A DNA stretch of 64,000 nt from a virus. The stretch spans positions 64,001-128,000 of the IMG/VR virus record IMGVR_UViG_3300030202_003006; one strand, given 5' to 3'. Every line of letters starts with the position of its first letter. Position 1 is the stretch's first letter. This document shows positions 2,422-48,897 of the stretch, in pieces. Position numbers and translations under genes: made by a program. Below the pieces are notes generated by a model. That model had not been told where the DNA came from and did not search any database. It saw only the letters and a program-made list of their open reading frames with translations.

Positions 2422-5400
2422 ATGGCAGACGGTAATAAGGTATTTGTTTCTCCAGGGGTATATACTTCGGAAAAAGATTTAACATTTGTAGCACAGAGTG
2501 TTGGTGTTACAACATTAGGTTTGGTTGGTGAGGCCTTAAAAGGTCCCGCTTTTGAACCTATTTTTATACAATCATATGATGATTTCATAACAAGATTTGG
2601 TGGTACTTCCCCAGCAACATATGTGGATTCACAGATTCCACAATATGAATTAGGGTATATTGCAAAGTCTTATCTAAGTCAATCAAACCAACTATTTGTT
2701 ACCAGAGTATTAGGTATAAGTGGTTATGACGCGGGTCCTTCTTGGACGGTAACTACAATAGGTGAATTAGACCCTTGTAGTTTTTCAGGTGCAAGTACAG
2801 GTATTACTAGTGCAAGTACAGGAAACGTAACTAACGGTACAAGAATAAAGTTCTATGTACCAATGACAGGTTCAAACGTATCACTAACAAGTGTTAGTAA
2901 TGCTTTTACAGATGTACAATTAGTAACAAACTTCTTTGACTCACTACCGGTACCTATTAAACAACACTTTAATGATGAAACCGTAACAAAATGTAATGGA
3001 GACACACTACCAACACTTAATAGTTCGTTTATGGATTGGTTTAGAGCTAGTTTCCAATATAGTGCGGGGACTGGTGCAGATACACAAGCTTTCTCAGCAG
3101 CAGCTTTCTATAACGGTTCCATATATCAATACGGATGTCTACCATTGGCTAACACATACGCTGCCACCGCTACAACCAATACGACATTATCAGCTACGGG
3201 TACAACAGTAATTACAAACGTATTAGATACGGATTGTACTACAGCTCTTGGGTGTCAAAGTACATATTGTAACGATGCTTGGTATTACGCATTATTTGAC
3301 TATTCGGGTGACACAACATGTTGTAGTGGAACATCCTATAGTGGAGTAGCTTACCAAATATATGCAAGTGCTACCACATCAGTTCAAAAAGTATCCACTG
3401 GAACTACAATATTTACAGGAAATACCTACATAAATGGTGTGTTAACTACAGCTTGTACAGTTTATTCAGGTCATGTAGTGGTCGATTATGTAGAATATAA
3501 TGGGGCTAAACCATACGTAGATTATGATGGTATGGCAGTCCTTACATTTAGGTCTAGAGGATTAAGTTCTAAATCTTCTGGTGGACCAGTATATGAAATA
3601 AGTGGTAATACGGTAGGAAATGTTACATTTGATTGTTCAGGAAATTACTACAAAGTATTAGAAAATCCTTTGGCACCATTTGGTGTTAGTGCACTTACAG
3701 ATGCTGGGGTATCATATACGTTTAAAACTTCGTTAGATAGTACAGCTAAAGATTACGCACCTAGAGTATTTGGTATAACACCATTCGATAAGAAAACTCA
3801 AGATGTTCCAATTTTTGTTGAGGAGGCATATCCAAACCTACTAAAAGACGCTTATAGAAGAGGTAAGGTTAGAGGGTTACAATGTTGTATGGTACATTTA
3901 CCAGCAGCAAGATTCAATAACGCTAACTTAGATTCTATAGCTTGGTACATGAATCAATGGCAAACACCTGAAACACCATACGTTGTTTCGGAAATGCAGG
4001 GTACAGACATATTTAGATTATTTAAGTTCATCTCAATATCTGACGGTAACGCAGCTAACAGAGAAATTAAAATATCATTAATTAATTTATCTTTTGAAAG
4101 AGGGGAGTTTGACGTAATTGTAAGAGATTACTACGATACTGATGCGAGTCCACAAGTATTAGAAAAATATACTAGATGTAGTTTAGACCCAACTAAGGTT
4201 TCATTTATTGGTAGAAAAATAGGAACTTCTACTGGTGAGTTTGAATTAAAGTCTAAATATATAATGTTATTCTTAGCAGATGGTGTTTTAGATGGTACAT
4301 TTGTTGGTTCACTACCTTGTGGTTTCGAAGGTTATAGAGTTAGACAATATGGAAATTGTTCAATAAATCCATTTATACAATATAAAACTAAATATTACAA
4401 CCCAGGTGAGATTGTATACGACCCACCTTTCGGTTCTGGTACTGTAAATAACCAAGTTAGAAGTGGTGGTGATAAAATATCAAAAACTTATTTAGGTATA
4501 TCAGATACATTAGGAGCAGCTTACGATACTGATTTCTTTAACTTTAAAGGTAGAATCACACCTTCTAGTGTTTGTAATACTACTACTGGTACAGAATGGG
4601 GTGTAATAACACAAGGTTTCCATATGGATTCAGGAGCTACAATTGCTATAGGTGGTCAAGGAAACTATATAGATTTAGCTGGTACTAATATAGCGGGTAA
4701 ACAAGTATTTGCGGTTGGAGCAACTTCATTTAGAAAAGAACCAACTTTAAGTACTGACCCATATAAAAAACTAAGAGCTCGTAAATTTACTGTAGCACCA
4801 TACGGTGGTTTTGATGGATGGGATATATACAGAAAAACAAGGTCAAATACAGACGATTATAGATTGGGTCTAACAGGTTGGTTAAATGGGGCGTGTGTTA
4901 CAGCAGAATACCCAACAGCTAGTGGGTTAGGGTCATTTAAGAAATTAAGTTCTACTGAAGGTAATAGTGACTATTACGCGTACCTAAGAGGAATTAACGA
5001 ATTCTCTAATCCAGAAGCTGTAGATATTAATGTATTTGCGACACCGGGTATAGATTATGTGGATAATTTAGGTTTGGTAAATGAAGCGATAGACATGGTA
5101 GAAGATGATAGAGCGGATTCACTATATGTTACAACAACACCAGATTATAACATGTTCGTAACTAACACAACAGATACAACAAATCAAGTTACACCGGAAG
5201 AAGCTGTAGATAATTTAGAAGACTCTTTAATCGACTCAAATTATACGGCTACGTATTATCCTTGGATACAAGTAAGGGATACGGCTAATAATAAACAAAT
5301 ATACATTCCACCTACTGCGGAAGTTATGAGAAATATAGCATTAACAGATAATATTTCATTCCCATGGTTTGCGTCAGCAGGTTATACTAGAGGTATAGTA

Positions 5401-5856
5401 CAAGCTACAAAAGCAAGAAAGAAACTTACTTTAGATGAAAGAGACACATTATATGTAGGTAGATTAAATCCAATAGCTACATTTAGTGATACGGGTCCAA
5501 TTATTTGGGGTAATAAAACACTACAAGTTAGAGAGTCAGCTTTAGATAGAATTAATGTTAGAAGATTACTACTACAAACTAGAAAATTAATATCAGCTGT
5601 TTCAGTAAGATTAATCTTTGAACAAAATGATGAAATAGTTAGACAACAATTCTTAGACTTAGTTAATCCAATATTAGATTCTATTAGAAGAGACAGAGGA
5701 TTAACAGACTTTAGAGTAGTACTTTCTAACGACCCAGAAGAAATAGATAGAAATGAAATGAACGGTAAAATATATATAAAACCTACTAGAGCGTTAGAAT
5801 ATATATTTGTAGAGTTCTTAATAACACCTACTGGGGCATCTTTTGAGGATATATAA
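2422..5856 (+). CDS. gp18: Tail sheath protein (T4 gp18-like) with a large insertion domain
   Basis: N-terminal SPGVYTSEKD and KGPAFEP; C-terminal PWFASAGYTRG, WGNKTLQ, RINVRRLL and IKPTRALEYIFVEF are sheath hallmarks. Confidence 0.95.
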   Translation: MADGNKVFVSPGVYTSEKDLTFVAQSVGVTTLGLVGEALKGPAFEPIFIQSYDDFITRFGGTSPATYVDSQIPQYELGYIAKSYLSQSNQLFVTRVLGISGYDAGPSWTVTTIGELDPCSFSGASTGITSASTGNVTNGTRIKFYVPMTGSNVSLTSVSNAFTDVQLVTNFFDSLPVPIKQHFNDETVTKCNGDTLPTLNSSFMDWFRASFQYSAGTGADTQAFSAAAFYNGSIYQYGCLPLANTYAATATTNTTLSATGTTVITNVLDTDCTTALGCQSTYCNDAWYYALFDYSGDTTCCSGTSYSGVAYQIYASATTSVQKVSTGTTIFTGNTYINGVLTTACTVYSGHVVVDYVEYNGAKPYVDYDGMAVLTFRSRGLSSKSSGGPVYEISGNTVGNVTFDCSGNYYKVLENPLAPFGVSALTDAGVSYTFKTSLDSTAKDYAPRVFGITPFDKKTQDVPIFVEEAYPNLLKDAYRRGKVRGLQCCMVHLPAARFNNANLDSIAWYMNQWQTPETPYVVSEMQGTDIFRLFKFISISDGNAANREIKISLINLSFERGEFDVIVRDYYDTDASPQVLEKYTRCSLDPTKVSFIGRKIGTSTGEFELKSKYIMLFLADGVLDGTFVGSLPCGFEGYRVRQYGNCSINPFIQYKTKYYNPGEIVYDPPFGSGTVNNQVRSGGDKISKTYLGISDTLGAAYDTDFFNFKGRITPSSVCNTTTGTEWGVITQGFHMDSGATIAIGGQGNYIDLAGTNIAGKQVFAVGATSFRKEPTLSTDPYKKLRARKFTVAPYGGFDGWDIYRKTRSNTDDYRLGLTGWLNGACVTAEYPTASGLGSFKKLSSTEGNSDYYAYLRGINEFSNPEAVDINVFATPGIDYVDNLGLVNEAIDMVEDDRADSLYVTTTPDYNMFVTNTTDTTNQVTPEEAVDNLEDSLIDSNYTATYYPWIQVRDTANNKQIYIPPTAEVMRNIALTDNISFPWFASAGYTRGIVQATKARKKLTLDERDTLYVGRLNPIATFSDTGPIIWGNKTLQVRESALDRINVRRLLLQTRKLISAVSVRLIFEQNDEIVRQQFLDLVNPILDSIRRDRGLTDFRVVLSNDPEEIDRNEMNGKIYIKPTRALEYIFVEFLITPTGASFEDI

Positions 5857-5864
5857 TATTTATA
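5857..5864 (+). promoter_or_regulatory. Putative late promoter TATTTATA
   Basis: Immediately after the sheath stop, 16 nt before ATG 5881. Confidence 0.55.
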
Positions 5865-6721: not shown

Positions 6722-7060
6722 ATGAAAAAAGTAAAAAAAATACAACTAAAAGAATCAGAATTAATAGATTTGATAGAAAAATTAGTTAAGGAAAACTTAG
6801 GTAATGGTAATGGTCAAAATCTAGGAATGATGAATACTCCAACAGCAAAATATAAAGACCTTGTGGAAGACGAGGACGTTGAGGGTATCGATGAACTGGA
6901 AGAAGAAGAGTTAGATGATGAAGGAGGTGATATGGTTGACCCAAAAACTGGTGAAGTGGTAAAAACAGAAAGTAGAAAAATACCAAAAAAGACTTTAAAA
7001 TTAACTGAAAGTGATTTAATTAGAGTTATTAAAAACGTTGTTAAGGAACAAAATAAATAA
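6722..7060 (+). CDS. Hypothetical protein with two KKxxLxESxLxxxIxxxVKE motifs
   Basis: 112 aa; KKIQLKESELIDLIEKLVKE and KKTLKLTESDLIRVIKNVVKE flank an acidic linker. Confidence 0.7.
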   Translation: MKKVKKIQLKESELIDLIEKLVKENLGNGNGQNLGMMNTPTAKYKDLVEDEDVEGIDELEEEELDDEGGDMVDPKTGEVVKTESRKIPKKTLKLTESDLIRVIKNVVKEQNK

Positions 7061-7077
7061 AACTAAAAATTAATATT

Positions 7078-7143
7078 ATGAAATGCGATTGCCAAGTTTG
7101 TGAATGTGGTACAAAATGTGAGTGTAGTTGTTGTGATTGTTAA
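7078..7143 (+). CDS. Metallothionein-like micro-protein MKCDCQVCECGTKCECSCCDC
   Basis: Below the ORF-track cutoff. ATG at 7078, TAA at 7141-7143; 9 Cys in 21 aa in CxC/CC spacing; A-rich leader; terminator directly downstream. Confidence 0.75.
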   Translation: MKCDCQVCECGTKCECSCCDC

Positions 7144-7163: not shown

Positions 7164-7188
7164 AAAAGGTCCAAAAGGACCTTTTTTT
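7164..7188. terminator. Bidirectional intrinsic terminator
   Basis: AAAAGGTCC-AAAA-GGACCTTTTTTT between convergent genes. Confidence 0.85.
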
Positions 7189-7423
7189 ATTCAACTAATT
7201 TACCCCCATTTAGTAAAATCAAAATTAAAATCATAGGTGATAATATAGGAGCTTTAATCATATGAGTTACTATGTAAAATACATACCACCCACTACTAGG
7301 ATTATCTCCACGACTCTTTTCGAATTTTAAGTACCCACGTTCGATACTTTTTTCATTTATAATTAAAAATATAAACATTAATATCTGTGAGATTATAAGG
7401 TATGTTAATAGTATTTCAGTCAT
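7187..7423 (-). CDS. Small membrane protein with two TM helices
   Basis: 78 aa with two hydrophobic stretches. Confidence 0.65.
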   Translation of the reverse strand: MTEILLTYLIISQILMFIFLIINEKSIERGYLKFEKSRGDNPSSGWYVFYIVTHMIKAPILSPMILILILLNGGKLVE

Positions 7424-7462
7424 AATTTTATTTTTTTTTTTGGTTAAACTCCTATATTAATA

Positions 7463-7492
7463 TATACGGATTTGTTTTAATTTAGTTACGTA
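7463..7492 (-). promoter_or_regulatory. ECF-sigma-like promoter GTAAC-N16-CGTATA
   Basis: On the - strand upstream of ATG 7423; matches the AAC/CGT pattern of ECF promoters. Confidence 0.35.
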
Positions 7493-7495
7493 TTT

Positions 7496-7945
7496 TTACT
7501 CTTTAAATCCCATAAAACCCGTAAATTCTTTTTCTCTACCAGTTTCAGTTAGATAAGAACCCTCAAGAGCAAAAACTAATAAATCATTTTGAACATATAA
7601 AAACCCAACTCTATTTGAGAAGTAGTCAGTAAAGGCGTAAGTCACACACCCATCTTCTAAGTAATTGATATTAGTTATTGTTAAGTAAAGATTTACAGTA
7701 TCTGGTGTAGTAAGTGACGAATACATAATTTGGGTAAAATCCAATGTAAGATTAACCGTATCCAAATCTAATTTAGTGGTGTTAGGACCATAGTTACCCA
7801 AAACAGTCAATTTTCCAAAGTCGTCGTTATTAAAATCTTGTGATAAGTTTTCCCCATTAATGACGGATAAATTTTCCGAAATATTAATAGTTTGAGCAAA
7901 AGTAAATAATGGTAATAAAAATAGTATTGTGATTAATTTTTTCAT
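7496..7945 (-). CDS. Secreted protein with a Sec signal peptide
   Basis: MKKLITILFLLPLFTFA|Q; Gln at +1 is typical of Bacteroidota SPase I substrates. Confidence 0.7.
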   Translation of the reverse strand: MKKLITILFLLPLFTFAQTINISENLSVINGENLSQDFNNDDFGKLTVLGNYGPNTTKLDLDTVNLTLDFTQIMYSSLTTPDTVNLYLTITNINYLEDGCVTYAFTDYFSNRVGFLYVQNDLLVFALEGSYLTETGREKEFTGFMGFKE

Positions 7946-7949
7946 GTTT

Positions 7950-8528
7950 TTAGTTTATTAATTTTTTAAAAAATAGTTTATTGTAGTATCTACAATTATA
8001 CCCATCTATGTTTTCGTAACTTTCTTGTACATAAAAATAAAGAGTATTATTTTGTAGACTGATTATTTCATATTGGATAGGGCGACTAGAACCACCCAAC
8101 TGTAGTGTAGTGCCTACCAAAGATTCTGTTACACTTAAATTATTGGACGTAACATTAAGACCGTAAGGTTGTAGACTGTCATAGTCTAGTATAAAACTAC
8201 CCATACCAGGTATATTATCTGGGATATCAAAAGACCAAGTAGTCGTGTAACGAGTTATTTCTTCAAACTCATACTGAGACCCCCCATACCTTAAACTACT
8301 AGTATTACCAGCATCAAAGTGGTGAAATTCTTCAGTATAATCTAATTCTAGATTTTCTATTATCATTTTTCCACCCATTAATAACCACTCACCTTCTAGT
8401 AAATTATCTTCCACATAAGATACTGGTGGTGGGTTAGTTGGTGGGGTTGGGTTACACTCTATTAGTGGATAGTTCTTTTCACAAGAGTATAGAGATAATA
8501 TAATTAATAGTTTTATAATTTTTTTCAT
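7950..8528 (-). CDS. Lipoprotein, lipocalin-like
   Basis: MKKIIKLLIILSLYS|C lipobox, Pro-rich linker and LEGEWLL (GxW) motif. Confidence 0.7.
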   Translation of the reverse strand: MKKIIKLLIILSLYSCEKNYPLIECNPTPPTNPPPVSYVEDNLLEGEWLLMGGKMIIENLELDYTEEFHHFDAGNTSSLRYGGSQYEFEEITRYTTTWSFDIPDNIPGMGSFILDYDSLQPYGLNVTSNNLSVTESLVGTTLQLGGSSRPIQYEIISLQNNTLYFYVQESYENIDGYNCRYYNKLFFKKLIN

Positions 8529-9460: not shown

Positions 9461-9468
9461 TATTTATA
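9461..9468 (+). promoter_or_regulatory. Putative late promoter TATTTATA (tube)
   Basis: 40 nt upstream of ATG 9509. Confidence 0.55.
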
Positions 9469-11088: not shown

Positions 11089-11096
11089 TATTTATA
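11089..11096 (+). promoter_or_regulatory. Putative late promoter TATTTATA (tape measure)
   Basis: 16 nt upstream of ATG 11113. Confidence 0.55.
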
Positions 11097-29209: not shown

Positions 29210-29211
29210 TG

Positions 29212-29219
29212 TATTTATT
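29212..29219 (+). promoter_or_regulatory. Putative late-type promoter TATTTATT
   Basis: 17 nt upstream of ATG 29237. Confidence 0.4.
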
Positions 29220-32912: not shown

Positions 32913-32952
32913 TTTAATATAATACCCGTATACCATAAACTAAATTATCAAG

Positions 32953-32960
32953 TATTTATT
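32953..32960 (+). promoter_or_regulatory. Putative late promoter TATTTATT
   Basis: 10 nt upstream of ATG 32971. Confidence 0.55.
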
Positions 32961-35332: not shown

Positions 35333-38300
35333 ATGCCAAAATCATTTAGAGTAAGGACAGAAATAGGTAAAGAAAAAAACTTAACATTTGAATTAAAACA
35401 AGATTTTGATTTATTAGAAATATTAAGTTTGTCTTTAACACAACAAGATGTGTATAGTAGGATGTGCTCAGATTTTGGAGTTGTGGTCGGTAGAGTTATA
35501 TCTAATGGTGGTTTCGGTATACCAAACGCTAAAGTTTCTATATTCGTACCTTTGGACTCTGAAGATGAAACCAACCCAATCATAAAACAACTTTATCCTT
35601 ATACTCAACCATATGACAAAGATGAACAAGGTAAAAGATATAATTTATTAAGTTCGGAAGAAAATTTTGACTGTCACGTTCCAGTAGGAACTTTTCCAAA
35701 ACTTAGAAATGTTTTGAGTAATCAAGATGTTAGGTATGTCTATGACAAATATTATAAATTTACGGTAAAAACTAATGAGTCTGGTGATTTTATGATATAT
35801 GGTGTTCCTACCGGAGACCAAAATATTGTGATGGATGTTGACCTAAGTGACATAGGTTGTTTTTCTTTACTACCTGAAGACTTTAAACAGATGGGTTACT
35901 CATCAACAGACTTTGATGGCCCCAAGTTTAAAAGTGATTCTAGTATAGACAGTCTTCCCCAAATATTAAATCAAACAAAATCAATAGATGTCAGACCTTT
36001 TTGGGGCGATGAAGAATTATGTAATGCATCAATAACTAGAGTAGATTTTGATTTACAAGATAGTGGATTTAAATTAAAACCTATGTCTATTTTTATGGGT
36101 AGTACAGCTACCGATACTGATAAAGACGCAGTTAACTTCTCTTGTAGACCCAGAAGAGCACAAGGAAATCTATGTAGTTTAGTTTCTCAACCAGGTCTGA
36201 TAGACGCAATCAGATATACACCATTTTTTAAGCAAGATTCTAACGCTTATACCTCAACCACATCACCAGGACTTGCTGCTGGAGGTACAGTACCGATATT
36301 AGAAAGATACTATTTAGAGGATGGTGGTAGAGTTATTGATAGTACAGGAGCTTTCTTAGTCCATTTACCGATGAATTTAGACCATGTAATTACTGACGAA
36401 TTCGGTAATTTGGTTAAGTCACAAGACCCTGAAAAAGGTGTGCCTACGAGAGGTAGATATAGATTTAGAATTAGACCGGAACAGTCAGCAGGAACAGCAA
36501 GAAATAGAAGAAGAGGGAGTTACCTAGTCCCAAACATTAGAGAGTATAATGATGATGTTGGGGATAGTTCAGATGGTAACTGGACAAGCATAGACCCAAA
36601 ATCCTACGCCTTTTCCATAGAATATAGTGATTATCACCCACACGCACAAACTAATTTACTGCCTGGAGCATTAGATTATTTTTATGACATGACTTTTAAT
36701 AGGGTTTATACGGTGTCACAATTTCATGACCATGTTAAACATAATGGTAGGAGACAATTTCTAGGTGTTAAAGAAATATTGCCAGAAGAAGAACAACAAT
36801 GTTCTACAACAGCAGTTCACTTTCCAGTTAACAGTGCTGTTAGAAGGGCAAAATTTATTATCTATTTAAATAATTTATTAATAGATTTAATGGGTATTAT
36901 TTTTATGGCTGTGTCATTAATAGTAGGTATTCTATCTTTTATATTTGGAATAATACTATTACCCATACTTTTATTTTTATATGCTTTATGTGCCATTTTA
37001 ATATTAATTAATGATGTTATTAGTAGTTTACCTTGGGTAAGTGGACCTTTGGATGGTTTAATAGCAGGATTAGGTTGTGATTGTATTTGTGTTAGTGGTA
37101 GTGGCTGCTTTGCTTGCGGGCCAGGAAATGTTAACTGTGCTTATTTTGGTTTCCCACTAGGGTTTGTATTATTTACTCTTAGACAAACCAAATATCCCGA
37201 ATGTGAAAAATGTACATGTCGTAATACCGCAAATAGTGAAATGCAAGCATTAGCAAATAACTTCCCATGTCCAGGTGCTCCCCCAACTTATGACTCATCA
37301 GATTGTGAAGGTGGATTCTTTAGTAGTTTAGCTCAATGGGGTGGTAATGATTGTTGTGGAGCACAGGACGAGGCAAGAGTATGTTGTCCAGATTGGTATG
37401 GTTTTGACTCTACAACTACTGTAGGTGGATTGGGTGATGTTGATGGACCAGCAGGTGGGGGATGTTATGTTAAAGTAATGTGCTTTAACCCAGCATGTAT
37501 CCTCGCAAATCTAAGTATGACAACATTCTTCCAATGGGCAAGAAGACAAAAAATAGCAAGTGCTTTATGTAATGGTGTGATGAATTATTTCTGGGAAAAC
37601 GCATGGGTAAGTGGATTTTTATATCAATTCCAATTTAAAATGAAATTAAAATATAGTGTCGCAGATGATAGTTATAATGCAGATTCTAAATGGTGTAAAA
37701 AACTAGTTTACATACACCCATCAGAACATGTTGTATATTATAGGTCTACACCTTTTAAATGGGACTCAGCGACCAATACAGGATACTTTTTAGGTGATGA
37801 AGATGGTGTGAGAGGTGGTAACTCTAGTTCAGATAAACATTCTGATGGTGACATGAGAAGACACATCCTTTTTCCGACCACAATAGTAGATATGGGTTCT
37901 AGAAATCAATGTATACAACAAATATGTTTAGACCCAAACTTTGCTGAAGAATGTTCAGTTACCGACCAGATAGGACATACCAGTTTCCAAGACTTTACAG
38001 AACTAGTTTCAGACATATATAATTTAAAAGCTAATTATTCATTAGCTGCCTTAGGTAGTTTCTTTACAAGACCAGAAAACGAAATAGGTGGAGATGTCGC
38101 ACAAGCTATTATGCAAAACTGTATGGTGGGTGTTGTTGGTTATGAAAGTAATATGAGTACTACCGGTTGTGTATGTCTTGATGATAATGGAAATTCCGGT
38201 ATAAATACAGGTACTACACTTGGTGAGTTAATGGAATACCCATACCCTGGTGATGGTAATAGTCCATTTAATGACCCCTATGTACAACATGGTGTTTATG

Positions 38301-38824
38301 GTGATGGTGCTAGAAGATGGATTCAATGGGAACCTATGTTATTTACAGCAGCTACACAAACTATTATGTCCGGTGTTGATTTAATAGAATGTTTAACAGA
38401 AGATTTAAGAGCCTCTTCACAACCAGTACCTTATTATATATGGAATTTAGACGGTGCACCTGGAACACCATTCGGTAGTGATTATAATGATTGGTCAGGA
38501 ACTTACGGAGACTATAGAAGAAAAACAGCTATTCCTATGAGTCCACTTGGGGCTATAAATTTAGGACCAGTATCTACGAATATATGGCCAGAACCTAACC
38601 CCCTAACTAGCGATTACTTCCAAGGTTCAAATGCAGGAACTATGGGTGTTAACAATAGTTTATTACAACCAGCTAATTACCCACCACTAACACCAACTAG
38701 TGCACCAACAATAAACATGACACAACCATTATTTTATTATTTTGGTTTAAGACCTGGACAAACATCTTACAATACGTTTTTAAGGTTATATGTCGATGAA
38801 GAATTAGCAGACGCGGTATTATAA
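35333..38824 (+). CDS. Structural protein with a carboxypeptidase-regulatory-like N-domain, a long hydrophobic segment and a Cys-rich region
   Basis: GVVVGRV...GIPNAKVSIF and TNESGDFMIYGVPTG; hydrophobic run at about 36854-37015. Confidence 0.6.
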   Translation: MPKSFRVRTEIGKEKNLTFELKQDFDLLEILSLSLTQQDVYSRMCSDFGVVVGRVISNGGFGIPNAKVSIFVPLDSEDETNPIIKQLYPYTQPYDKDEQGKRYNLLSSEENFDCHVPVGTFPKLRNVLSNQDVRYVYDKYYKFTVKTNESGDFMIYGVPTGDQNIVMDVDLSDIGCFSLLPEDFKQMGYSSTDFDGPKFKSDSSIDSLPQILNQTKSIDVRPFWGDEELCNASITRVDFDLQDSGFKLKPMSIFMGSTATDTDKDAVNFSCRPRRAQGNLCSLVSQPGLIDAIRYTPFFKQDSNAYTSTTSPGLAAGGTVPILERYYLEDGGRVIDSTGAFLVHLPMNLDHVITDEFGNLVKSQDPEKGVPTRGRYRFRIRPEQSAGTARNRRRGSYLVPNIREYNDDVGDSSDGNWTSIDPKSYAFSIEYSDYHPHAQTNLLPGALDYFYDMTFNRVYTVSQFHDHVKHNGRRQFLGVKEILPEEEQQCSTTAVHFPVNSAVRRAKFIIYLNNLLIDLMGIIFMAVSLIVGILSFIFGIILLPILLFLYALCAILILINDVISSLPWVSGPLDGLIAGLGCDCICVSGSGCFACGPGNVNCAYFGFPLGFVLFTLRQTKYPECEKCTCRNTANSEMQALANNFPCPGAPPTYDSSDCEGGFFSSLAQWGGNDCCGAQDEARVCCPDWYGFDSTTTVGGLGDVDGPAGGGCYVKVMCFNPACILANLSMTTFFQWARRQKIASALCNGVMNYFWENAWVSGFLYQFQFKMKLKYSVADDSYNADSKWCKKLVYIHPSEHVVYYRSTPFKWDSATNTGYFLGDEDGVRGGNSSSDKHSDGDMRRHILFPTTIVDMGSRNQCIQQICLDPNFAEECSVTDQIGHTSFQDFTELVSDIYNLKANYSLAALGSFFTRPENEIGGDVAQAIMQNCMVGVVGYESNMSTTGCVCLDDNGNSGINTGTTLGELMEYPYPGDGNSPFNDPYVQHGVYGDGARRWIQWEPMLFTAATQTIMSGVDLIECLTEDLRASSQPVPYYIWNLDGAPGTPFGSDYNDWSGTYGDYRRKTAIPMSPLGAINLGPVSTNIWPEPNPLTSDYFQGSNAGTMGVNNSLLQPANYPPLTPTSAPTINMTQPLFYYFGLRPGQTSYNTFLRLYVDEELADAVL

Positions 38825-40659: not shown

Positions 40660-41533
40660 TAGAATACAAATAAAAGCTTCACTAGGGGAAAAACAAATTA
40701 CTATCCCAATAGGACAAACCTTTGATGAGGTAGGTCGTGAACAATTAATACGTGATTATGAAGTAGTAGAACAACAAGATAATGTAAATATTATACAAGA
40801 TTATGAAACTACTAGATATTCTTTTAGTGGTGGTTCATTTATTCATTATGAATTTAAGTTTTATTCTGGTGGAACTTATTTTGATAAATTTAAACCACTA
40901 GGGTATAAAGACTACGAATTAGCTAAAAATAAAAAATCTTTTGTTAATAGTTTTTTTAAGTTTGATTATTGGGACTCACCATTAAGAAAAGAACAAAAAT
41001 TAATGTTTTCTATAGTTATTCCAGCTAACAATTGTGATAAAGATTACCCAGCAATGGTTAATATTGATGAAGACCCCTTAGAATACTTCTCACAACTAGC
41101 TTCTGGTGATTTAGCTCCTGGACAATTACCAGAATATGATATATACCACCCATACATTACGGTAGGTCCCACTCAAGTTAGAAATGAGGGTTACTATATA
41201 CAATGGTTAAAGGAAAGAAATTTGTTAGAAATAGATACATTTTATATGTCGTGTAATTTTTTTAATGCGGGTACAGGACAATCAACACGAATGATAAATA
41301 AAAATCCTTTAATTCCCTCAGGTAGTTGGGACCCAACAACCGACTTAGGAACTTATGATTATCCAGAATGGTTCTACTACCAAGTTAAATTAACCATAAG
41401 AGAAGGTACAGAAACACCAAAGTATTACTATAATGTATATAACTATAGTAATATGAATTTACAATACGGTATACAGGGTAGCTCAATAGGTACCCTAACC
41501 CCGATAATTTTTTATGAATACATTGAACCATAA
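40649..41533 (+). CDS. Hypothetical structural protein
   Basis: 294 aa, aromatic-rich, in the baseplate operon. Confidence 0.6.
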   Translation: MSVNRIQIKASLGEKQITIPIGQTFDEVGREQLIRDYEVVEQQDNVNIIQDYETTRYSFSGGSFIHYEFKFYSGGTYFDKFKPLGYKDYELAKNKKSFVNSFFKFDYWDSPLRKEQKLMFSIVIPANNCDKDYPAMVNIDEDPLEYFSQLASGDLAPGQLPEYDIYHPYITVGPTQVRNEGYYIQWLKERNLLEIDTFYMSCNFFNAGTGQSTRMINKNPLIPSGSWDPTTDLGTYDYPEWFYYQVKLTIREGTETPKYYYNVYNYSNMNLQYGIQGSSIGTLTPIIFYEYIEP

Positions 41534-44500
41534 TGGAAGTAAATAAATATGTAATAAGAAGGTCCAACCCAGACGTGAGTTGGTCGATACCATGTTCAGG
41601 AGCTACTAATATGTGGCCTATTAATTATAGTACTAATTGTTCCGGTTCTACAATGTATAGTTCTACAGCTTCACAAGTACTTAATGCGTTGAATGGAAAT
41701 ATGAATAATTTCCCAATGGAGTTAAGTGATTGTAGCCCTACAAACCCTTGTGTAATATTATGGGACGTGAACCCACAACCTATTGGTACTGTAGGTAGAT
41801 GTCAAGTCAATGACTTTGCATACATAGAATATAAAGGTTTTTGGTTAACTACACCAGGGCCAGTAACACAACAAGTAAGTTATTCAGAACTTATAGGGTA
41901 TTATGAAAGTAATAATTTTGATTTATCAACAAGTTTACAATCACAATCATCTTCTTACGCACAAATGAATAGAGCATGGTGTCTATGTGACAATCCACTA
42001 GGTGAATTCCTATATGATATTACATTTTCTTTACACCAAGATTTCAATGATATCGGTCATTATTCCCTATGGGATGGAAATATTGACCAAAAAGAAATAT
42101 TCCAAAACTTTGTTGTTAGTGCAACTACAAATCCGGGGGGTATATACGACGGGTATTATATACAAGTTTGGAATACCACAGATTTTGGATTCTACAAAAC
42201 ATTCCAAGACTCAGCTTATGTTATAGATTGGGGTGACGGTACACAATCTACATTACAGTATCCTACTCTTATAGGAAACCATCAATACGCAGCAACAGCA
42301 GTACCAACATATAAACAAATAAAAATAACATATAACGCTCCTTGGGGACCAGTTAGTACTACCAAAACTATAGTAGTACCTAATTTAGATTTATTGGGGA
42401 TAGTATCCCAACCCCCAGGACCATCACCTTTATTGGGTGGTATGCCACCTCAACAAGTAAATTTAACAGGACCTACTAATACAGGCGGTCTACCTGTAGG
42501 TTCATCAACCGCGGGACATGCTGTATATGGTAATCCAGGTACGATGAGTTACATGCCTTTAGATTCAGCAGTAGACATTAATGAATTTAGTGGGTTATCA
42601 CCAATGCCATGTTTTACAGTGACTGGTATTACTGAAAGTATACTAGGTAGTTTCCAAACCTATTCAAATACCACTAATGCACCTGGATTATTAGAACCAG
42701 GTATGAACATTAGTAATACACCAGGACAATATGTAGTACCTATAGGTGGTGATGTTATCGACCCCGTAAGTAATGAACCCACACCAGGGTTAATGGGAGA
42801 AATAACAGCTGCGAACGGAGGTTATACAGCATACACAGTTTATGCACCTACTGTAGCTGGTAATATAACCCCTATAGAATACTACGATTTTGTTAACGGT
42901 ATAACAATTTTTGTGGCGGAAAGTTGTGGGTTACCAGGTAATACTTTTCTAGATAGTGCCGACTGTTTTCAATGTGAAATAGATGATTGTACTTATTGTG
43001 AAACCAAAGACGAATACTTTAATAGGGAGAGTGGTGTATTGGGTGGACCAACAGCAATTTCTGTAGGGACTAATTACGCAAATTTAGTTCCACCACAACA
43101 ATGGAACTCTTTTACAAATTATAATATTGGTGATATAGTTTTTGACCGAACTTATAATTTATGTTGTTGTTATATGGTAGTAAAAGATATTATACAATCT
43201 GGTGCTACTCCATCAGATTGGGCGGGTGTACCCCCAGCTATAACTGATGATGGTATGTGGTATCCAGGATTAGATATTAATGGTAATACTTTACCTGGTC
43301 ATCATATTTATGAACCATGTTGTAGACAACCAGATTGTGATTGTGGAACATGTCCACCAGGAACAGCAACACCATGTAATGACCCAACTAATCCTTGGAA
43401 TTCTTATCCGTTAACATTACCTGTTGGACCAGCAGGACCGTGGGTAAATGGAAATGTTTATAATGTGGGGGAATTTACCGAAGGTCCAAATGGTGGTTGT
43501 TATAGAGCTTTATCTACGGGTGCTCACCCATCACCAGTTACTGGTGCAGGAGCATCCACCTATTGGGATTATGTAACCTGTGCAAGTTGGGCATGTCCGA
43601 TAGACCCAACCGCTACTGGATGTCAGATGTATACGGGGTTAACCCAAGGAATACCAGGAGCTTTTCCATTTTATAGTGATTGTGATACATTTTTTGCGGC
43701 AGGAGAATGTTTTGATACACAGTGGATTTGTGAAGACCAATATAATTGTAGTGGTTGTATAGAGATTAATTCTTCTCATAGTGGTTATACATTACCTATC
43801 GCACCACCAGTATTTTCAGCACAGGCAGAGTGTGAAGCTTGGTGTGACCCACCACTATATTCTTGTGCAACCCCAACAACTAGTCCATGTTGTCTGTTTA
43901 TGAGTTGTGATATACTACCAAACCTATATACCGCAGCTATGAATGATTATTTCACTGCTTTTGGAGGTGGAGCACCAATAACAATACCTAATCTAAATTC
44001 TTTAGATTTATATTTAGATTCTTCCATTTGTGAAAGTGCATGTTGTGAAACACTAGGATACCAATGGACTTGTACCTATGGATGCCAAGAATTTCCTGGT
44101 TTAACACAAAGTTTAGCTGATTGTGTTGCTACATCCCCAGCTGGTACTTTTGGTTTATCAGCAGAGTGTGGGTATGATTGTGTAAATCCTTGTGTACCAT
44201 ATGTTCCGGGTGTTTCTAGTCCTTGTATGTCATGTACTGATTTAGGTATATTTAACACCCCTGGTTGTGCACCATTCCAAACTGACGCTCAATGTGCTCA
44301 AAGTTGTACGGCTGATACATCTTGTTACAGATGTGATTGTTATGATACACAACCATGTACTTTAGAATATCCATGTACAACACCTTCTGCCACGGTACCT
44401 GGTTGTACAGGACCTAATCCAGCACTTGGAACTTATGCAACTGCATCCGCATGTACAGCATCTTGTATTTGTGACGCAGGTTGGGATTGTTACATTATAA

Positions 44501-47500
44501 ATAACCCATATGACCCAAATTACGGTCAACCAGACGGTCAAGGATGTCGATATGTACAAGATTTAAACTTATTAGGTACCGGATTTACATTTTCATCTAA
44601 TGGACCATTTTCAGCATTAACAGATTGTTGTTTAGATACTGGTTGTTGTACTGTAAATTGTGATGAAATTGATGCACTATATTATGACCCTGCTATAAAT
44701 GGCTACACCCCAGCCAATTATATTGGGCCACCAAATCCTCCACCACCATTTGGTACTGGTACTTATCCGTGTTATTATGAAACCGTTTCAAACACTAGTA
44801 TAGGTTGTTATTCAGGCCAATCTGGTGGACCATATAATGCTGGATTTAGTTTACCATTTTGTACTATGGCAGACTGTTTAAATTGGATAACTGCTGATGC
44901 TCCATGTCCTCCAGCTGAAGACCCATTGGGTAACCCAACAGGTTTTACATGTTGTGAAGAAGAAATAGAAATTACTTGTGATTGTGCGTGTAGTGGTACT
45001 ACAGCGGCACTAATGATATCCCCACTCCCTTTAAATCATACTGGTGCTTTTGTTGCGAGTGGAACGGAGGGGTATACTATAGGGGATACCGTTACGTATG
45101 TAGATATAGATAGTCCGGTGTGTTGTTATGTTTGTAATTGTCCGGATAATGGTGGTGTTTTAGATTGTAATTCCTACACTCCAGATATGCCTTTACCTCC
45201 AGGACAAATAAATTGTTGGGAATCTTGTGGGTCTACCGAAGGAAGTGCACCGTCAGGGTGTACACCTTGTTTAGGTTATTCCGCAACACAGGATACATAT
45301 CTATGTACAACTAATAATGGTTGTGTTGCTTCTGACGATATAATATTAAATCCAGGAGGTATGGGGGTACCATGTGTTATAAACCCACTGTTCACTCAAA
45401 CACAACAAAATTGTTACACATCTTCTACCTGTGATTACGAATGTCAAGCAGGTTGTTATTGTGATGACCAAGGAACCCCTAACCCATTAGATGATATAAC
45501 TGGTTGTGTTATGTTACAAGATGTCTTGAACGGTTTAACCCCTTTCGCTTCAACCAATTACTTTGCATTATCTTTAGATAGTTGTAACACAGCAATAACT
45601 TTAGGTATGGATTGTTGTACGGGTGAAACTTTTTACTGTGACTATATAGATAATGGGTCAGTTATTAATTGTGATTCTACAGGTACATTAGGTACAGGAT
45701 GTCAATCTATATATGATGGACAACCAGGATATCCAGGACCTTACACATCTTTAACCGACTGTCAACAAGCCTGTACTTGGGAATGTGATAGTAACGGGTG
45801 GCAACAATGTCAGTTCGTTTTAAATTCAACAGCACCAGTTACTTTCCCTAGTGCGAATGCTTGTTACGTGGCTAATACACAACCAACTAATTGTTATTGT
45901 CAACCATCAGCAACCACATCTTGGTATTGTGATAATTCAGGTCAATCCGGTCTATTACCTGGCACAAGTAATTGTGTAACCAGTACCGTAGTTGCTGGGT
46001 ATACTACCGCTCAACAACAACAAGTTTACGGTCAAGGACAAATAACTTATTTTGCTGGTGGAACAGGGTTCTTAAACCAAACATTTTGTGAAGAATTTTG
46101 TAGATATAAATGTTATGATACAAATGTAGGGTTAACCCCACCTAATACTCCTTGTGAATGTAGTTTAGATTGGGGTAATAACGGTGGAACAACAACTTCA
46201 TTTTATGATTGTACCGGGTCTACTTTTTCTAATCTAGGATATTATCCTTGTTGTCCGACAGGAACTACTATATTTTGTTGTGACCCAATATTAGGTTGTC
46301 TAGGACCTTATACTCCTGGTAATCAACCAGCGGGTTGTCTAGGTACTTTTTCAAGTGATGCACAATGTAATACTGAATGTAATTTTGCTTGTGGAGATTG
46401 TTTTGGTACAGATAATTGTTTCTGTGAATTTTATTTTGGCCCACTAGTATGTACCGGTGAAACCATATATAATACTATGGCTGATTGTCAAGCTAATTAT
46501 ACTCTAGGACAATTTAGTTCTACCGGATGTTGTGATTGTTATGATTGTGCTATTAATGGGGGTATAACTTGGACATATACACCATCAGATAATGCTACTA
46601 CATGGATGTCTAATAGTACGTCAGTACCATCACCTCAAAACGGTATTTTAGGTGACCCATGGTCTTCCGGCCAAGTGGGCGTACCTAATGGTGGGTATTT
46701 TGCTGGAGATACGGTTTTATACACTAATAGTGATGGTGTTACTTGTTGTTATGTTTTTGTTAATAAATGGAATACTTCATGGATTGATTTTACCATAGAC
46801 CCACACACTTATTACACTTCTTACGTTAATGCAGTTGCTAATAATGACTTTTATTTAGCATATTACTCACAAGTATGGATTGCGTGTGACCCTAGTTGTG
46901 CACCACCTAGTATAATCACTTGGGATTGTTTCCCAGGTACAGCAACTGATACTTGTCTAAATCTAACTAATTTCTTCCAAAATAGTGTAGGGAACCCAGT
47001 CCCTTATTTTGGTGACGCATTAGATGCTGTTCTAACAGGTTGGGGTAACCCCAACGTAACCAACTCAGGTTTTCAAGCAGCAGTATTCCAAATGGGTCAA
47101 TATGTAACGGAACTAATGGCTCCATTTGCACCACAAACACCAGGACACTGTCAAGGTCCTAATGGAGGTTACTTACATAAAGTTACAGGTATAAATGTAT
47201 CCGGTGTAGCTACAAACCCATCAGCTCCAGCGTATTTACCTACAGTCGCTGCGGGAACACCATTTAGTTCTTGGAAAGGATTGATAGACGCTTTAAATGC
47301 AGACAACTGGATGTTAGGTAACGGTACATCACCAATTTGGAATGTTACAGACCCTCTGGTAGTATACAATGATTTTTGTATCTATAATGAAGGTGATTGT
47401 TTTGGTGCCAAATCAATAGCGTGTATTTGTGGTGGTAAACCATGTGACTGTCAACCAGTATATGGTCCAGGTGGTCAGTACGCAACATCAGCTTCGTGTT

Positions 47501-48897
47501 ATAGTGCATGTTGTGAAACATCCTATAGATGTCATGGTACACTATGTCAATGTATAGATTGTGGTGGACCACAATGGCAAACCGGTTGTGCATATGCAAA
47601 TTTAGGGCAGTGTCAAAATGACCCACTTACTTGTTGTAGTAGTGCTACTACTGAATGGAGTTGTTATAATAATGGAGTTACGTGTGAATGTATACAGGCT
47701 CCAGGACCATATTCGTCTTTAACTCACTGTCAAACAGCTAACAATTGTTGTAAACCACCAGACCCAACTGACTGTACCGATTGTCACGCTTTTTCAGCTT
47801 TAAATGATTGTGGACAATACTTTGTACTAAAAGACATAAACCAATGGATGTTAACTGCATACGGTGGGTTGTATTCAGCATTAACAACACCTCTAGGTGT
47901 AAATCTTCACTGTGACCCTAATTATTATTTATATGACCCAGCCACTCAATGTTGTTGGATATGTGTGATGGACAAAGACGGTACTCTAGCTGGAAATAGA
48001 AACTTCCTAGGAGAAGACCCAAACCAAAGTGCGTGTTGTACAATATGGAAGGGTCAGTTATGGGGTAGTAGTCTCGCGATGGGTAATGGTTGTTGGTGCC
48101 AAGCGGACCAAAAATTTTACGATTCGGGGTGGATACCTTGTGGTGGGTCAGGACAGAATTGTTTACCACCAAACTACGAAGAAACTTGGGATTGTGATAT
48201 GCAAACACAAACGTGTTATGACCCCTTAAATGGTTCAGGTCAATACCATGCTGGAAACGGAGGATACTTGGCTTGTGTTCAAAACTGTATATCTCATGGT
48301 AACTGTAAAGATTGTGAAAATGCATTATCACCATTTTTAGACGCACCAGGAACAATTACTATGATGGGACCATGGGACCCAGCACAATCTTATAGTCATA
48401 ATGATTGTGTTACTATACAACACCATTTTGGGCCGATGCCATTACATGATGACCCAGAATGTTGTTATTGTTGTGTTAGAAAATCAGGAGGACCAGACCC
48501 TCAAGACGACGATGATGTTTTACATGGGTTGACACATAATTTAGATAACTATTATCGTCTTTTAACTCAACAAAGTAACAAATCATTAAAAAGTGTGGAT
48601 GCCTCTTTTGACGATGTTGTGTTATCGGACCCAGACGACCCTTTTAATTGTCCTATAGGGTTTGACCCAAGTCAAGGAGGTAGTATGAATGGTTCACAAT
48701 GGTTACCTTGTGGGATACAACCAAATGGTGACCCATGTGTGAAAAAGTGTAAAAAATGTTGCTGTAAAGGTAATCAACAAATACAATTAGCATCAACTAC
48801 TAATCCTTGTGTATGTCCACAAGGTTGGAATGACTGTAGCTGTAACATTATTATTGGACCTGGTGGCCCTGTAGGAATTGAACCAAGTGATGGATAA
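41533..48897 (+). CDS. Giant Cys/Pro/Gly/Thr-rich modular virion (fibre/decoration) protein
   Basis: 2454 aa; PKD-like IDWGDG motif; CBM5/12-like modules; many WxC...F/YxxxxxCxxxC repeats. Confidence 0.7.
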   Translation: MEVNKYVIRRSNPDVSWSIPCSGATNMWPINYSTNCSGSTMYSSTASQVLNALNGNMNNFPMELSDCSPTNPCVILWDVNPQPIGTVGRCQVNDFAYIEYKGFWLTTPGPVTQQVSYSELIGYYESNNFDLSTSLQSQSSSYAQMNRAWCLCDNPLGEFLYDITFSLHQDFNDIGHYSLWDGNIDQKEIFQNFVVSATTNPGGIYDGYYIQVWNTTDFGFYKTFQDSAYVIDWGDGTQSTLQYPTLIGNHQYAATAVPTYKQIKITYNAPWGPVSTTKTIVVPNLDLLGIVSQPPGPSPLLGGMPPQQVNLTGPTNTGGLPVGSSTAGHAVYGNPGTMSYMPLDSAVDINEFSGLSPMPCFTVTGITESILGSFQTYSNTTNAPGLLEPGMNISNTPGQYVVPIGGDVIDPVSNEPTPGLMGEITAANGGYTAYTVYAPTVAGNITPIEYYDFVNGITIFVAESCGLPGNTFLDSADCFQCEIDDCTYCETKDEYFNRESGVLGGPTAISVGTNYANLVPPQQWNSFTNYNIGDIVFDRTYNLCCCYMVVKDIIQSGATPSDWAGVPPAITDDGMWYPGLDINGNTLPGHHIYEPCCRQPDCDCGTCPPGTATPCNDPTNPWNSYPLTLPVGPAGPWVNGNVYNVGEFTEGPNGGCYRALSTGAHPSPVTGAGASTYWDYVTCASWACPIDPTATGCQMYTGLTQGIPGAFPFYSDCDTFFAAGECFDTQWICEDQYNCSGCIEINSSHSGYTLPIAPPVFSAQAECEAWCDPPLYSCATPTTSPCCLFMSCDILPNLYTAAMNDYFTAFGGGAPITIPNLNSLDLYLDSSICESACCETLGYQWTCTYGCQEFPGLTQSLADCVATSPAGTFGLSAECGYDCVNPCVPYVPGVSSPCMSCTDLGIFNTPGCAPFQTDAQCAQSCTADTSCYRCDCYDTQPCTLEYPCTTPSATVPGCTGPNPALGTYATASACTASCICDAGWDCYIINNPYDPNYGQPDGQGCRYVQDLNLLGTGFTFSSNGPFSALTDCCLDTGCCTVNCDEIDALYYDPAINGYTPANYIGPPNPPPPFGTGTYPCYYETVSNTSIGCYSGQSGGPYNAGFSLPFCTMADCLNWITADAPCPPAEDPLGNPTGFTCCEEEIEITCDCACSGTTAALMISPLPLNHTGAFVASGTEGYTIGDTVTYVDIDSPVCCYVCNCPDNGGVLDCNSYTPDMPLPPGQINCWESCGSTEGSAPSGCTPCLGYSATQDTYLCTTNNGCVASDDIILNPGGMGVPCVINPLFTQTQQNCYTSSTCDYECQAGCYCDDQGTPNPLDDITGCVMLQDVLNGLTPFASTNYFALSLDSCNTAITLGMDCCTGETFYCDYIDNGSVINCDSTGTLGTGCQSIYDGQPGYPGPYTSLTDCQQACTWECDSNGWQQCQFVLNSTAPVTFPSANACYVANTQPTNCYCQPSATTSWYCDNSGQSGLLPGTSNCVTSTVVAGYTTAQQQQVYGQGQITYFAGGTGFLNQTFCEEFCRYKCYDTNVGLTPPNTPCECSLDWGNNGGTTTSFYDCTGSTFSNLGYYPCCPTGTTIFCCDPILGCLGPYTPGNQPAGCLGTFSSDAQCNTECNFACGDCFGTDNCFCEFYFGPLVCTGETIYNTMADCQANYTLGQFSSTGCCDCYDCAINGGITWTYTPSDNATTWMSNSTSVPSPQNGILGDPWSSGQVGVPNGGYFAGDTVLYTNSDGVTCCYVFVNKWNTSWIDFTIDPHTYYTSYVNAVANNDFYLAYYSQVWIACDPSCAPPSIITWDCFPGTATDTCLNLTNFFQNSVGNPVPYFGDALDAVLTGWGNPNVTNSGFQAAVFQMGQYVTELMAPFAPQTPGHCQGPNGGYLHKVTGINVSGVATNPSAPAYLPTVAAGTPFSSWKGLIDALNADNWMLGNGTSPIWNVTDPLVVYNDFCIYNEGDCFGAKSIACICGGKPCDCQPVYGPGGQYATSASCYSACCETSYRCHGTLCQCIDCGGPQWQTGCAYANLGQCQNDPLTCCSSATTEWSCYNNGVTCECIQAPGPYSSLTHCQTANNCCKPPDPTDCTDCHAFSALNDCGQYFVLKDINQWMLTAYGGLYSALTTPLGVNLHCDPNYYLYDPATQCCWICVMDKDGTLAGNRNFLGEDPNQSACCTIWKGQLWGSSLAMGNGCWCQADQKFYDSGWIPCGGSGQNCLPPNYEETWDCDMQTQTCYDPLNGSGQYHAGNGGYLACVQNCISHGNCKDCENALSPFLDAPGTITMMGPWDPAQSYSHNDCVTIQHHFGPMPLHDDPECCYCCVRKSGGPDPQDDDDVLHGLTHNLDNYYRLLTQQSNKSLKSVDASFDDVVLSDPDDPFNCPIGFDPSQGGSMNGSQWLPCGIQPNGDPCVKKCKKCCCKGNQQIQLASTTNPCVCPQGWNDCSCNIIIGPGGPVGIEPSDG

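Follow-up and report, generated by a model that had tools for sequence, protein, structure and literature searches.

A conserved nine-cysteine micro-gene of large marine phages encoding a candidate metallothionein-like peptide

The locus downstream of the tail sheath gene

The window, by which we mean the whole 64,000-nucleotide stretch analysed here (positions 64,001 to 128,000 of IMG/VR virus record IMGVR_UViG_3300030202_003006), is AT-rich (around 32% G+C) and belongs to a record of 155,892 bases with a CheckV completeness of approximately 48%. The carrier is best explained as a large AT-rich marine myovirus, and its host is probably a member of the Bacteroidota/Flavobacteriia. The tail sheath gene is followed by a gene for a 278-aa protein of no known family, a gene for a 112-aa acidic protein, a very short open reading frame (ORF) with nine cysteine codons, and a terminator. 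The features of the locus, together with the most Cys-rich protein of the window, are the following:

2422-5856: tail sheath, 1,144 aa, assigned to PHROG 23 and carrying Pfam sheath domains
5857..5864, + strand: TATTTATA box, putative promoter upstream of the 5881 gene; the unit would include the nine-Cys gene
6722..7060, + strand: 112-aa acidic protein without any family match, upstream neighbour of the nine-Cys gene ('cluster 17')
7058..7077, + strand: A-rich translation-initiation leader without a Shine-Dalgarno (SD) motif, with A at -13 to -9, -6, -5 and -3
7078..7143, + strand: nine-Cys peptide gene, ATG, 21 codons and TAA, skeleton MK-CxCxxCxC-G-xx-CxCxCCxC-stop
7164..7192, both strands: bidirectional intrinsic terminator with a 9-bp stem, a 4-nt loop and a T-run, closing the sheath-side transcription unit
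7187-8528, - strand: three convergent small genes (78, 149 and 192 aa) that share the bidirectional terminator
41533-48897, + strand: giant Cys-rich protein of 2,454 aa, with 199 Cys (8.1%)

The first-pass annotation had reported nine Cys in 21 residues, spaced CxC-xx-CxC-xxx-CxCxCCxC and free of aromatic residues, which is exact for the ORF at 7078-7143 (+). Its ATG is separated by 17 nt from the stop codon of the 6722-7060 gene. Considering all six frames of the whole window, this ORF holds the record of Cys density, with 9 per 20 residues; the runners-up reach 7 per 20 residues and all lie in non-coding antisense frames. Because its Cys content is the six-frame maximum of the window, the ORF is not a product of chance. 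The resemblance of its leader to those of neighbouring genes is also borne out, given that the 29 long genes of the window share the same signature: A is found at -3 in 72% of them and at -13 in 72%, compared with 35-36% for all ATGs, and SD-like motifs precede just 7%. An A-rich leader lacking an SD motif is the initiation style of Bacteroidota.

The hairpin at 7164-7185 starts 20 nt past the ORF, is followed by the T-run, and is the sole strong terminator-like site nearby, with the form of a terminator on either strand. The ORF is thus, as had been proposed, the last gene before a strong terminator, and the genes beyond are convergent. This hairpin is kept in relatives both with and without the nine-Cys gene. 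None of the three convergent proteins has a family match; the 78-aa one is membrane-embedded in appearance, and those of 149 and 192 aa have N-termini resembling signal peptides or lipoproteins.

Regarding the proposed promoter of the unit, the TATTTATA box is present at 5857 and several boxes of this type sit 20-50 nt upstream of gene starts in the window, while the total count is that expected by chance (19 copies against 19.4 in shuffled sequences). A role of the box at 5857 as promoter of the unit that includes the nine-Cys gene is plausible from its placement. Boxes of the form (G)TATTTAT(A/T) are located before gene starts at 455-463, 2375-2383, 5857-5864, 9461-9468, 11089-11096, 29211-29219 and 32952-32960. 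The position of such boxes 20-50 nt ahead of genes suggests a phage promoter, the 8-mer total being no higher than in shuffles.

It had also been suggested that the peptide may serve unusually Cys-rich virion proteins in the window. The description as Cys-rich holds for the 2,454-aa protein, which has no Pfam match, and for the large proteins encoded at 35333-38824 and 53580-57746, with around 3% Cys each. The three are probably extracellular parts of the virion, with a Cys level unusual for a phage.

A family of nine-Cys peptides with a single skeleton

The family was delimited by two scans of IMG/VR. The first used degenerate codons for the nine Cys and required neither the Gly nor a stop codon; it returned 15 small ORFs of the nine-Cys design amid microsatellite noise, and all 15 stop right after Cys9. 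The second scan added the Gly codon and the stop and left the ATG outside the pattern. At least 119 contigs carry the pattern, and the matches listed comprise at least 87 distinct peptides of 20-23 aa. All 87 listed peptides have the skeleton M(x0-3)-CxCxxCxC-G-xx-CxCxCCxC-stop, and in 87/87 an ATG is found 0-3 codons before Cys1 even though the pattern left it free. Most raw matches of the first pattern and of a metagenome scan were TGY microsatellites, which were removed by the Gly codon and the Cys count.

Half-pattern scans, in which one half of the skeleton is fixed at a time, remove the circularity of this search. With the C-terminal half fixed, 89 distinct matches had the exact CxCxxCxC N-terminal half and 21 were unrelated noise, without intermediates. 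When MK, Cys1-4 and the Gly were fixed instead, 61 of 70 distinct ORFs showed the exact xxCxCxCCxC-stop C-terminal half; the rest consisted of four with 1-2 extra residues, one with His in place of Cys6, and four noise matches. This His (CAC, in the ORF at L297:29-94, + strand) requires two base changes and is the sole Cys replacement in the half-pattern scans. The Gly is near-invariant, being absent from three variants, and several non-Cys positions are biased, with Asn/Asp at 2, Lys/Gln at 4, Ser at 11 and Asn/Asp at 18.

Using the 278-aa neighbour as a query we retrieved 32 related loci. The closest three have the ORF at the corresponding position and retain every Cys; their few replacements fall at non-Cys positions. 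A tblastn search of GenBank phages with the peptide gave no match, probably owing to the low-complexity filter. Searches with blastn using two family members and their flanks gave only spurious matches, among them one to Acinetobacter phage BS46 that corresponds to an opposite-strand gene which is not Cys-rich.

Sequence evidence for a protein-coding gene

The variation within the family follows the reading frame. Both TGT and TGC are used at all nine Cys sites (TGC share 15-37%), variation is greatest at the third codon position, and the conserved Ser before Cys5 is encoded by TCN in 63 members and by AGY in 18. The pN/pS ratio is 0.24 over the core and 0.69 at the non-Cys positions, which are only weakly constrained. 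The leaders of 101 family loci have A at -3 in 87% and at -12/-13 in 85-86%. The test originally proposed for the ORF, namely a conserved frame, conserved Cys codons and synonymous variation in relatives, thus came out strongly positive. With this outcome, the sequences establish the ORF as a genuine, conserved protein-coding micro-gene, with purifying selection on all nine Cys.

That the stretch could instead be a TGT-rich repeat, or an RNA or DNA element that is open by chance, receives almost no credence from us. TGY-rich microsatellites are indeed common and were the source of most raw pattern matches; against a repeat speak the codon-periodic variation, the switching between Ser codon families and the fixed ATG and stop. 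With the bimodal outcome of the half-pattern scans and at least 87 distinct variants, this explanation is refuted as far as sequence evidence goes.

The gene had been expected to escape standard gene callers. In agreement with this, ten exact family sequences searched in a collection of 15 billion predicted proteins were all missing from it, so the family is not visible to standard annotation.

Distribution

A strict version of the pattern was searched in 185,579 species, each represented by a single genome, giving eight stretches, of which seven are CTG/TGC repeats. The eighth, which is the sole match in a cellular genome, lies on a phage-like contig binned into a Flavobacteriaceae metagenome-assembled genome (MAG). 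This contig matches an IMG/VR contig across the peptide gene and the sequence immediately beside it, and its other genes include those for a phage-type helicase, a dCMP deaminase and a coat-like protein; it hints either at a host among the Flavobacteriaceae or at an artefact of binning. When around 400 Flavobacteriaceae and around 400 other Bacteroidota genomes were searched with a profile built from the 87 peptides, no additional match was obtained. A further 16 canonical members came from the metagenome scan, and the contigs that carry them all have 29-39% G+C. On these sequence searches, the family appears to be essentially virus-restricted and nearly confined to large phages of the ocean.

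In GenBank the contigs that carry the gene have only distant relatives, the nearest being a 462-kb uncultured phage, the Prevotella Lak megaphages and Flavobacterium phage immuto. The pattern is absent from the 462-kb phage, from immuto and from marine virus AG-345-O18, the three genomes covered by this comparison, in which the Lak megaphages were not included.

On contig L190 (3159-3801, + strand), the nine-Cys gene is found 70 nt upstream of a gene for dCMP deaminase, a zinc enzyme family, and of a phage-type helicase gene; the sequence around the nine-Cys gene is the same in L261, the contig of the Flavobacteriaceae MAG.

Genomic contexts and mobility

Clustering of the neighbouring genes revealed at least five different neighbourhoods for the nine-Cys gene. 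In the lineage of the window, the 112-aa gene is followed by the nine-Cys gene and then by the terminator, and the adjacency of the two genes is kept in the window and in L183, L200, L143, L168, L189, L208 and L239; in some more distant relatives the pair formed by the 112-aa homologue and the nine-Cys gene stands beside other genes. Two contexts are T4-like, with the nine-Cys gene amid replication genes (clamp-loader-like and primase-like, as judged from their first residues), and here the next gene often begins 2-12 nt past its stop codon. The commonest context, found in 40/101 loci, comprises the nine-Cys gene, a border element, a gene for a FAD-dependent 'dehydrogenase' (PHROG 12409, with a Pyr_redox N-terminus), a small protein and an AAA_28 kinase.

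A terminator is located within 100 nt downstream in 41/99 copies (around 41%), and in 40/99 a co-oriented gene begins within 40 nt with no terminator between. The late expression that had been assigned to the gene does not hold in general, since in other phages it is part of an operon or of a replication-type module, and a terminator comes after only about 41% of the copies. None of the copies examined had a metal-handling gene (MerR, CopZ, P-type ATPase and the like) as a neighbour, and no obligatory partner gene is conserved across the at least five neighbourhoods.

In four syntenic contigs of the L125-L136 group (L125, L132, L134 and L136), the stop codon of the 112-aa gene is directly followed by the same terminator, without a peptide gene. 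The mini-gene, of around 85 bp, is seen as a clean insertion/deletion difference between syntenic relatives. Comparison of the loci shows the nine-Cys gene to be an accessory mini-gene, mobile between genome neighbourhoods.

These arrangements bear on two other explanations of the ORF. In the first, it would be a Cys-rich leader peptide in which stalling at the nine Cys codons senses cysteinyl-tRNA and controls the downstream terminator by attenuation. A tiny ORF made up to 43% of one amino acid, with a terminator close by in the 41 copies mentioned, is what such a leader would look like, and in one lineage a conserved hairpin and terminator lie between the nine-Cys gene and the FAD oxidoreductase gene. 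However, the window's copy does not classify as a leader of this kind: with convergent genes beyond the terminator it would have no target of regulation, and attenuation is excluded for the window. Moreover, the 40 copies with a close downstream gene have no terminator to control, the hairpin-terminator element is found after other genes too, and leader peptides do not keep an exact Cys spacing, a near-invariant Gly, a fixed C-terminus and a ban on aromatic residues. We therefore regard attenuation as extremely unlikely for the family.

In the second, the ORF would encode the precursor core of a ribosomally made, post-translationally modified peptide (RiPP). Short Cys-rich ORFs with a terminal Cys are known among such precursors, and a FAD-dependent oxidoreductase is encoded downstream in the 40 loci of the commonest context; nevertheless, the peptides do not have the make-up of precursors, with 0-3 residues before Cys1 and, in most copies, none after Cys9. 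No modifying enzyme is conserved over the five neighbourhoods. The FAD enzyme does not neighbour the gene in the window, and elsewhere it is encoded past a terminator, with a border element of its own upstream, all of which makes a RiPP very unlikely.

A functional tie between the peptide and the FAD oxidoreductase (40% of loci) was likewise set aside, since the terminator and the border element intervene. The border element is always located upstream of the module of the FAD 'dehydrogenase'; 33 copies follow a Cys-peptide gene and 18 follow other genes. Because it is also found after other genes, the element is a property of the downstream module.

Resemblance to metallothioneins

An operational definition of metallothioneins asks for the binding of several metal ions in metal-thiolate clusters and, at the level of sequence, takes in the mass (below approximately 10 kDa), a Cys-rich sequence built from CxC, CC and CxxC motifs, and the absence of aromatic residues together with rare His. 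The 87 listed variants have 20-23 residues, and the peptide of the window has a mass of around 2.2 kDa. Nine of its 21 residues (43%) are Cys, arranged in the skeleton recovered by the half-pattern scans. Among 965 variable residues of the family there is no Phe, Trp or Tyr, His amounts to 0.1% and Leu to 0.2%, compared with 7.2% Leu and 10.5% aromatics in the large proteins of the window; the variable positions are occupied by Asn, Lys, Ser, Thr, Gly, Asp and Glu.

In database searches, the sole Pfam family matched at E values up to 10 was PF01439 (Metallothio_2), with 27 of the 87 members and a best E value of 0.33, which is non-significant; none of the 87 reached its gathering threshold, and the window's own peptide gave no match. 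The profile of the family matched a single PDB chain, the wheat Ec-1 metallothionein 2KAK, which displays CxCGxxCxCxxCxC, at a non-significant E value of 7.9. The animal and bacterial metallothionein families PF00131 and PF02069 gave no match to the 87 members at E values up to 10, and NCBIfam gave none to the family. As sequence matches, such weak resemblances to PF01439 and 2KAK do not make the nine-Cys peptides members of those families. In the collection of papers searched, the string CxCxxCxC occurs almost exclusively in those on metallothioneins.

The peptide shares CxCGxxCxC and CxCxxCxC-type blocks with the plant metallothioneins of PF01439 and with wheat Ec-1, as well as the presence of Gly, Ser, Asn, Asp and Lys between the Cys and Cys-rich parts free of aromatics. 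However, the plant proteins have 45-85 residues, with two Cys-rich regions joined by a spacer, whereas the phage peptide is a single block of 19 residues with a CC doublet. The beta domains of animal metallothioneins are likewise dominated by CxC and free of aromatics, and bind metal through nine Cys in a M(II)3Cys9 cluster, in approximately 30 residues. In PF00131 this domain has another Cys spacing and is part of a two-domain protein, while the nine Cys of the phage peptide span 19 residues and stand alone. Closest in size are eukaryotic peptides, namely the Cu metallothioneins of the Neurospora crassa type, single domains of around 25 aa with seven Cys and a Cu(I) cluster, and Magnaporthe MMT1, of 22 aa. 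These resemble the phage peptide in their tiny single-domain size and in having CxC motifs with Gly, Ser or Asn between them, but contain 6-7 Cys without a CC doublet, and share no detectable sequence match with it. The prokaryote world offers SmtA and BmtA (PF02069), small metal-thiolate proteins that differ from the phage peptide in having around 55 residues, His ligands, aromatic residues and a zinc-finger-like fold. Finally, the building block of Tetrahymena Cd-metallothioneins, CxCxxCxCCK (PMC1808422), likewise has the CxCxxCxC block with a CC doublet after it, although it is repeated in proteins of more than 100 residues and its block order is unlike that of the phage peptide.

Proposed function

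The suggestion that the peptide is a metallothionein was accordingly retained in part: it is small, 43% Cys and aromatic-free, and its weak database resemblances are all to metallothioneins, while no threshold of a curated family is reached. The interpretation that we favour, with moderate confidence, is that the translated accessory micro-gene yields a metallothionein-like, metal-clustering peptide. The product would be a 21-residue cytoplasmic peptide whose small size and polar character leave no room for a hydrophobic core; a chain of this length in which 43% of the residues are Cys, and which has neither such a core nor a signal peptide, cannot fold independently in the cytoplasm. Since the nine thiols and their spacing are invariant, they would constitute a ligand set, and the CxC and CC motifs would wrap around a metal-thiolate cluster in the manner of metallothioneins. 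The sole natural replacement of a Cys is by His, which is likewise a metal ligand. The cluster could contain three divalent ions (Zn or Cd, of the M3Cys9 type) or several Cu(I) ions. Given that nine Cys fall within 19 residues, as against the approximately 30 of beta domains, a classical M3Cys9 cluster may not fit and oligomers or Cu(I) may be needed; by analogy with the tiny fungal peptides, a Cu(I) cluster may suit so dense an array better. In the infected cell, a peptide that binds or releases such ions would keep trace metal buffered, sequester it or pass it on.

The conservation of the nine Cys fits another thiol-dependent function equally. The peptide may be real and its Cys serve a role other than metal storage, as a metal-stapled, Zn-knuckle-like or redox-active binder of proteins, or as a thiol buffer; the target of such a mini-module could be a host or phage protein, inhibited or activated in host takeover or counter-defence. 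Hypervariable phage regions carry many small accessory genes, and the nine-Cys gene is patchy and mobile, as those are; the biased positions 2, 4, 11 and 18 could mark an interaction surface. Nevertheless, there are only around ten non-Cys side chains, and these are the weakly constrained ones (pN/pS 0.69), no partner gene is conserved, the composition is that of metallothioneins, and known zinc knuckles bind each ion through 3-4 ligands and retain hydrophobic residues. We consider this alternative unlikely, and the metal-clustering peptide preferable to it.

With support and doubt nearly balanced and doubt slightly ahead, we tentatively propose that large ocean phages carry, as a mobile mini-gene, a metallothionein that is specific to viruses and, with nine thiols in 20-23 residues, would be shorter and denser in Cys than any other known; it would capture or redistribute scarce trace metals (Zn, Cd, Co, Cu) within marine bacteria during infection. 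If true, it would represent a new class of auxiliary gene tying viral infection to trace-metal cycling in the ocean. Our literature search found no description of a phage- or virus-encoded metallothionein, and the small-protein catalogues that it covered, the main paper on small phage genes not being among them, make no mention of Cys-rich or metallothionein families. Should the peptide bind metal, it would be the smallest natural metallothionein and a simple model for the chemistry of metal-thiolate clusters, and the gene would add a new type to the viral auxiliary genes of oceans in which trace metals are limiting. Should it not, it would still be a widespread and strongly constrained phage micro-protein. 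The family is an example of coding sequence overlooked below 30 codons.

Structure of the border element

The border element upstream of the FAD module is a composite, RNA-like element, found at L162:2612-2712 (+) and in 50 further copies, and has no match in Rfam. In one lineage a tRNA was suspected from the sequence downstream of the nine-Cys gene; this candidate was rejected, as neither ARAGORN nor Rfam detected any. The 5' part of the border element is a hairpin with the invariant loop GATTCATAGCC and a covarying stem, followed by an A-rich spacer; compensatory changes are found in four of the five stem pairs (33 sequences). In the 3' part, an invariant CTGTGGC leads into a terminator hairpin of variable sequence with a T-run, after which the conserved CGTATATTAAC is found. 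Judging from the sequence, the loop AUAGC could pair with a downstream GCUGU, forming a possible pseudoknot.
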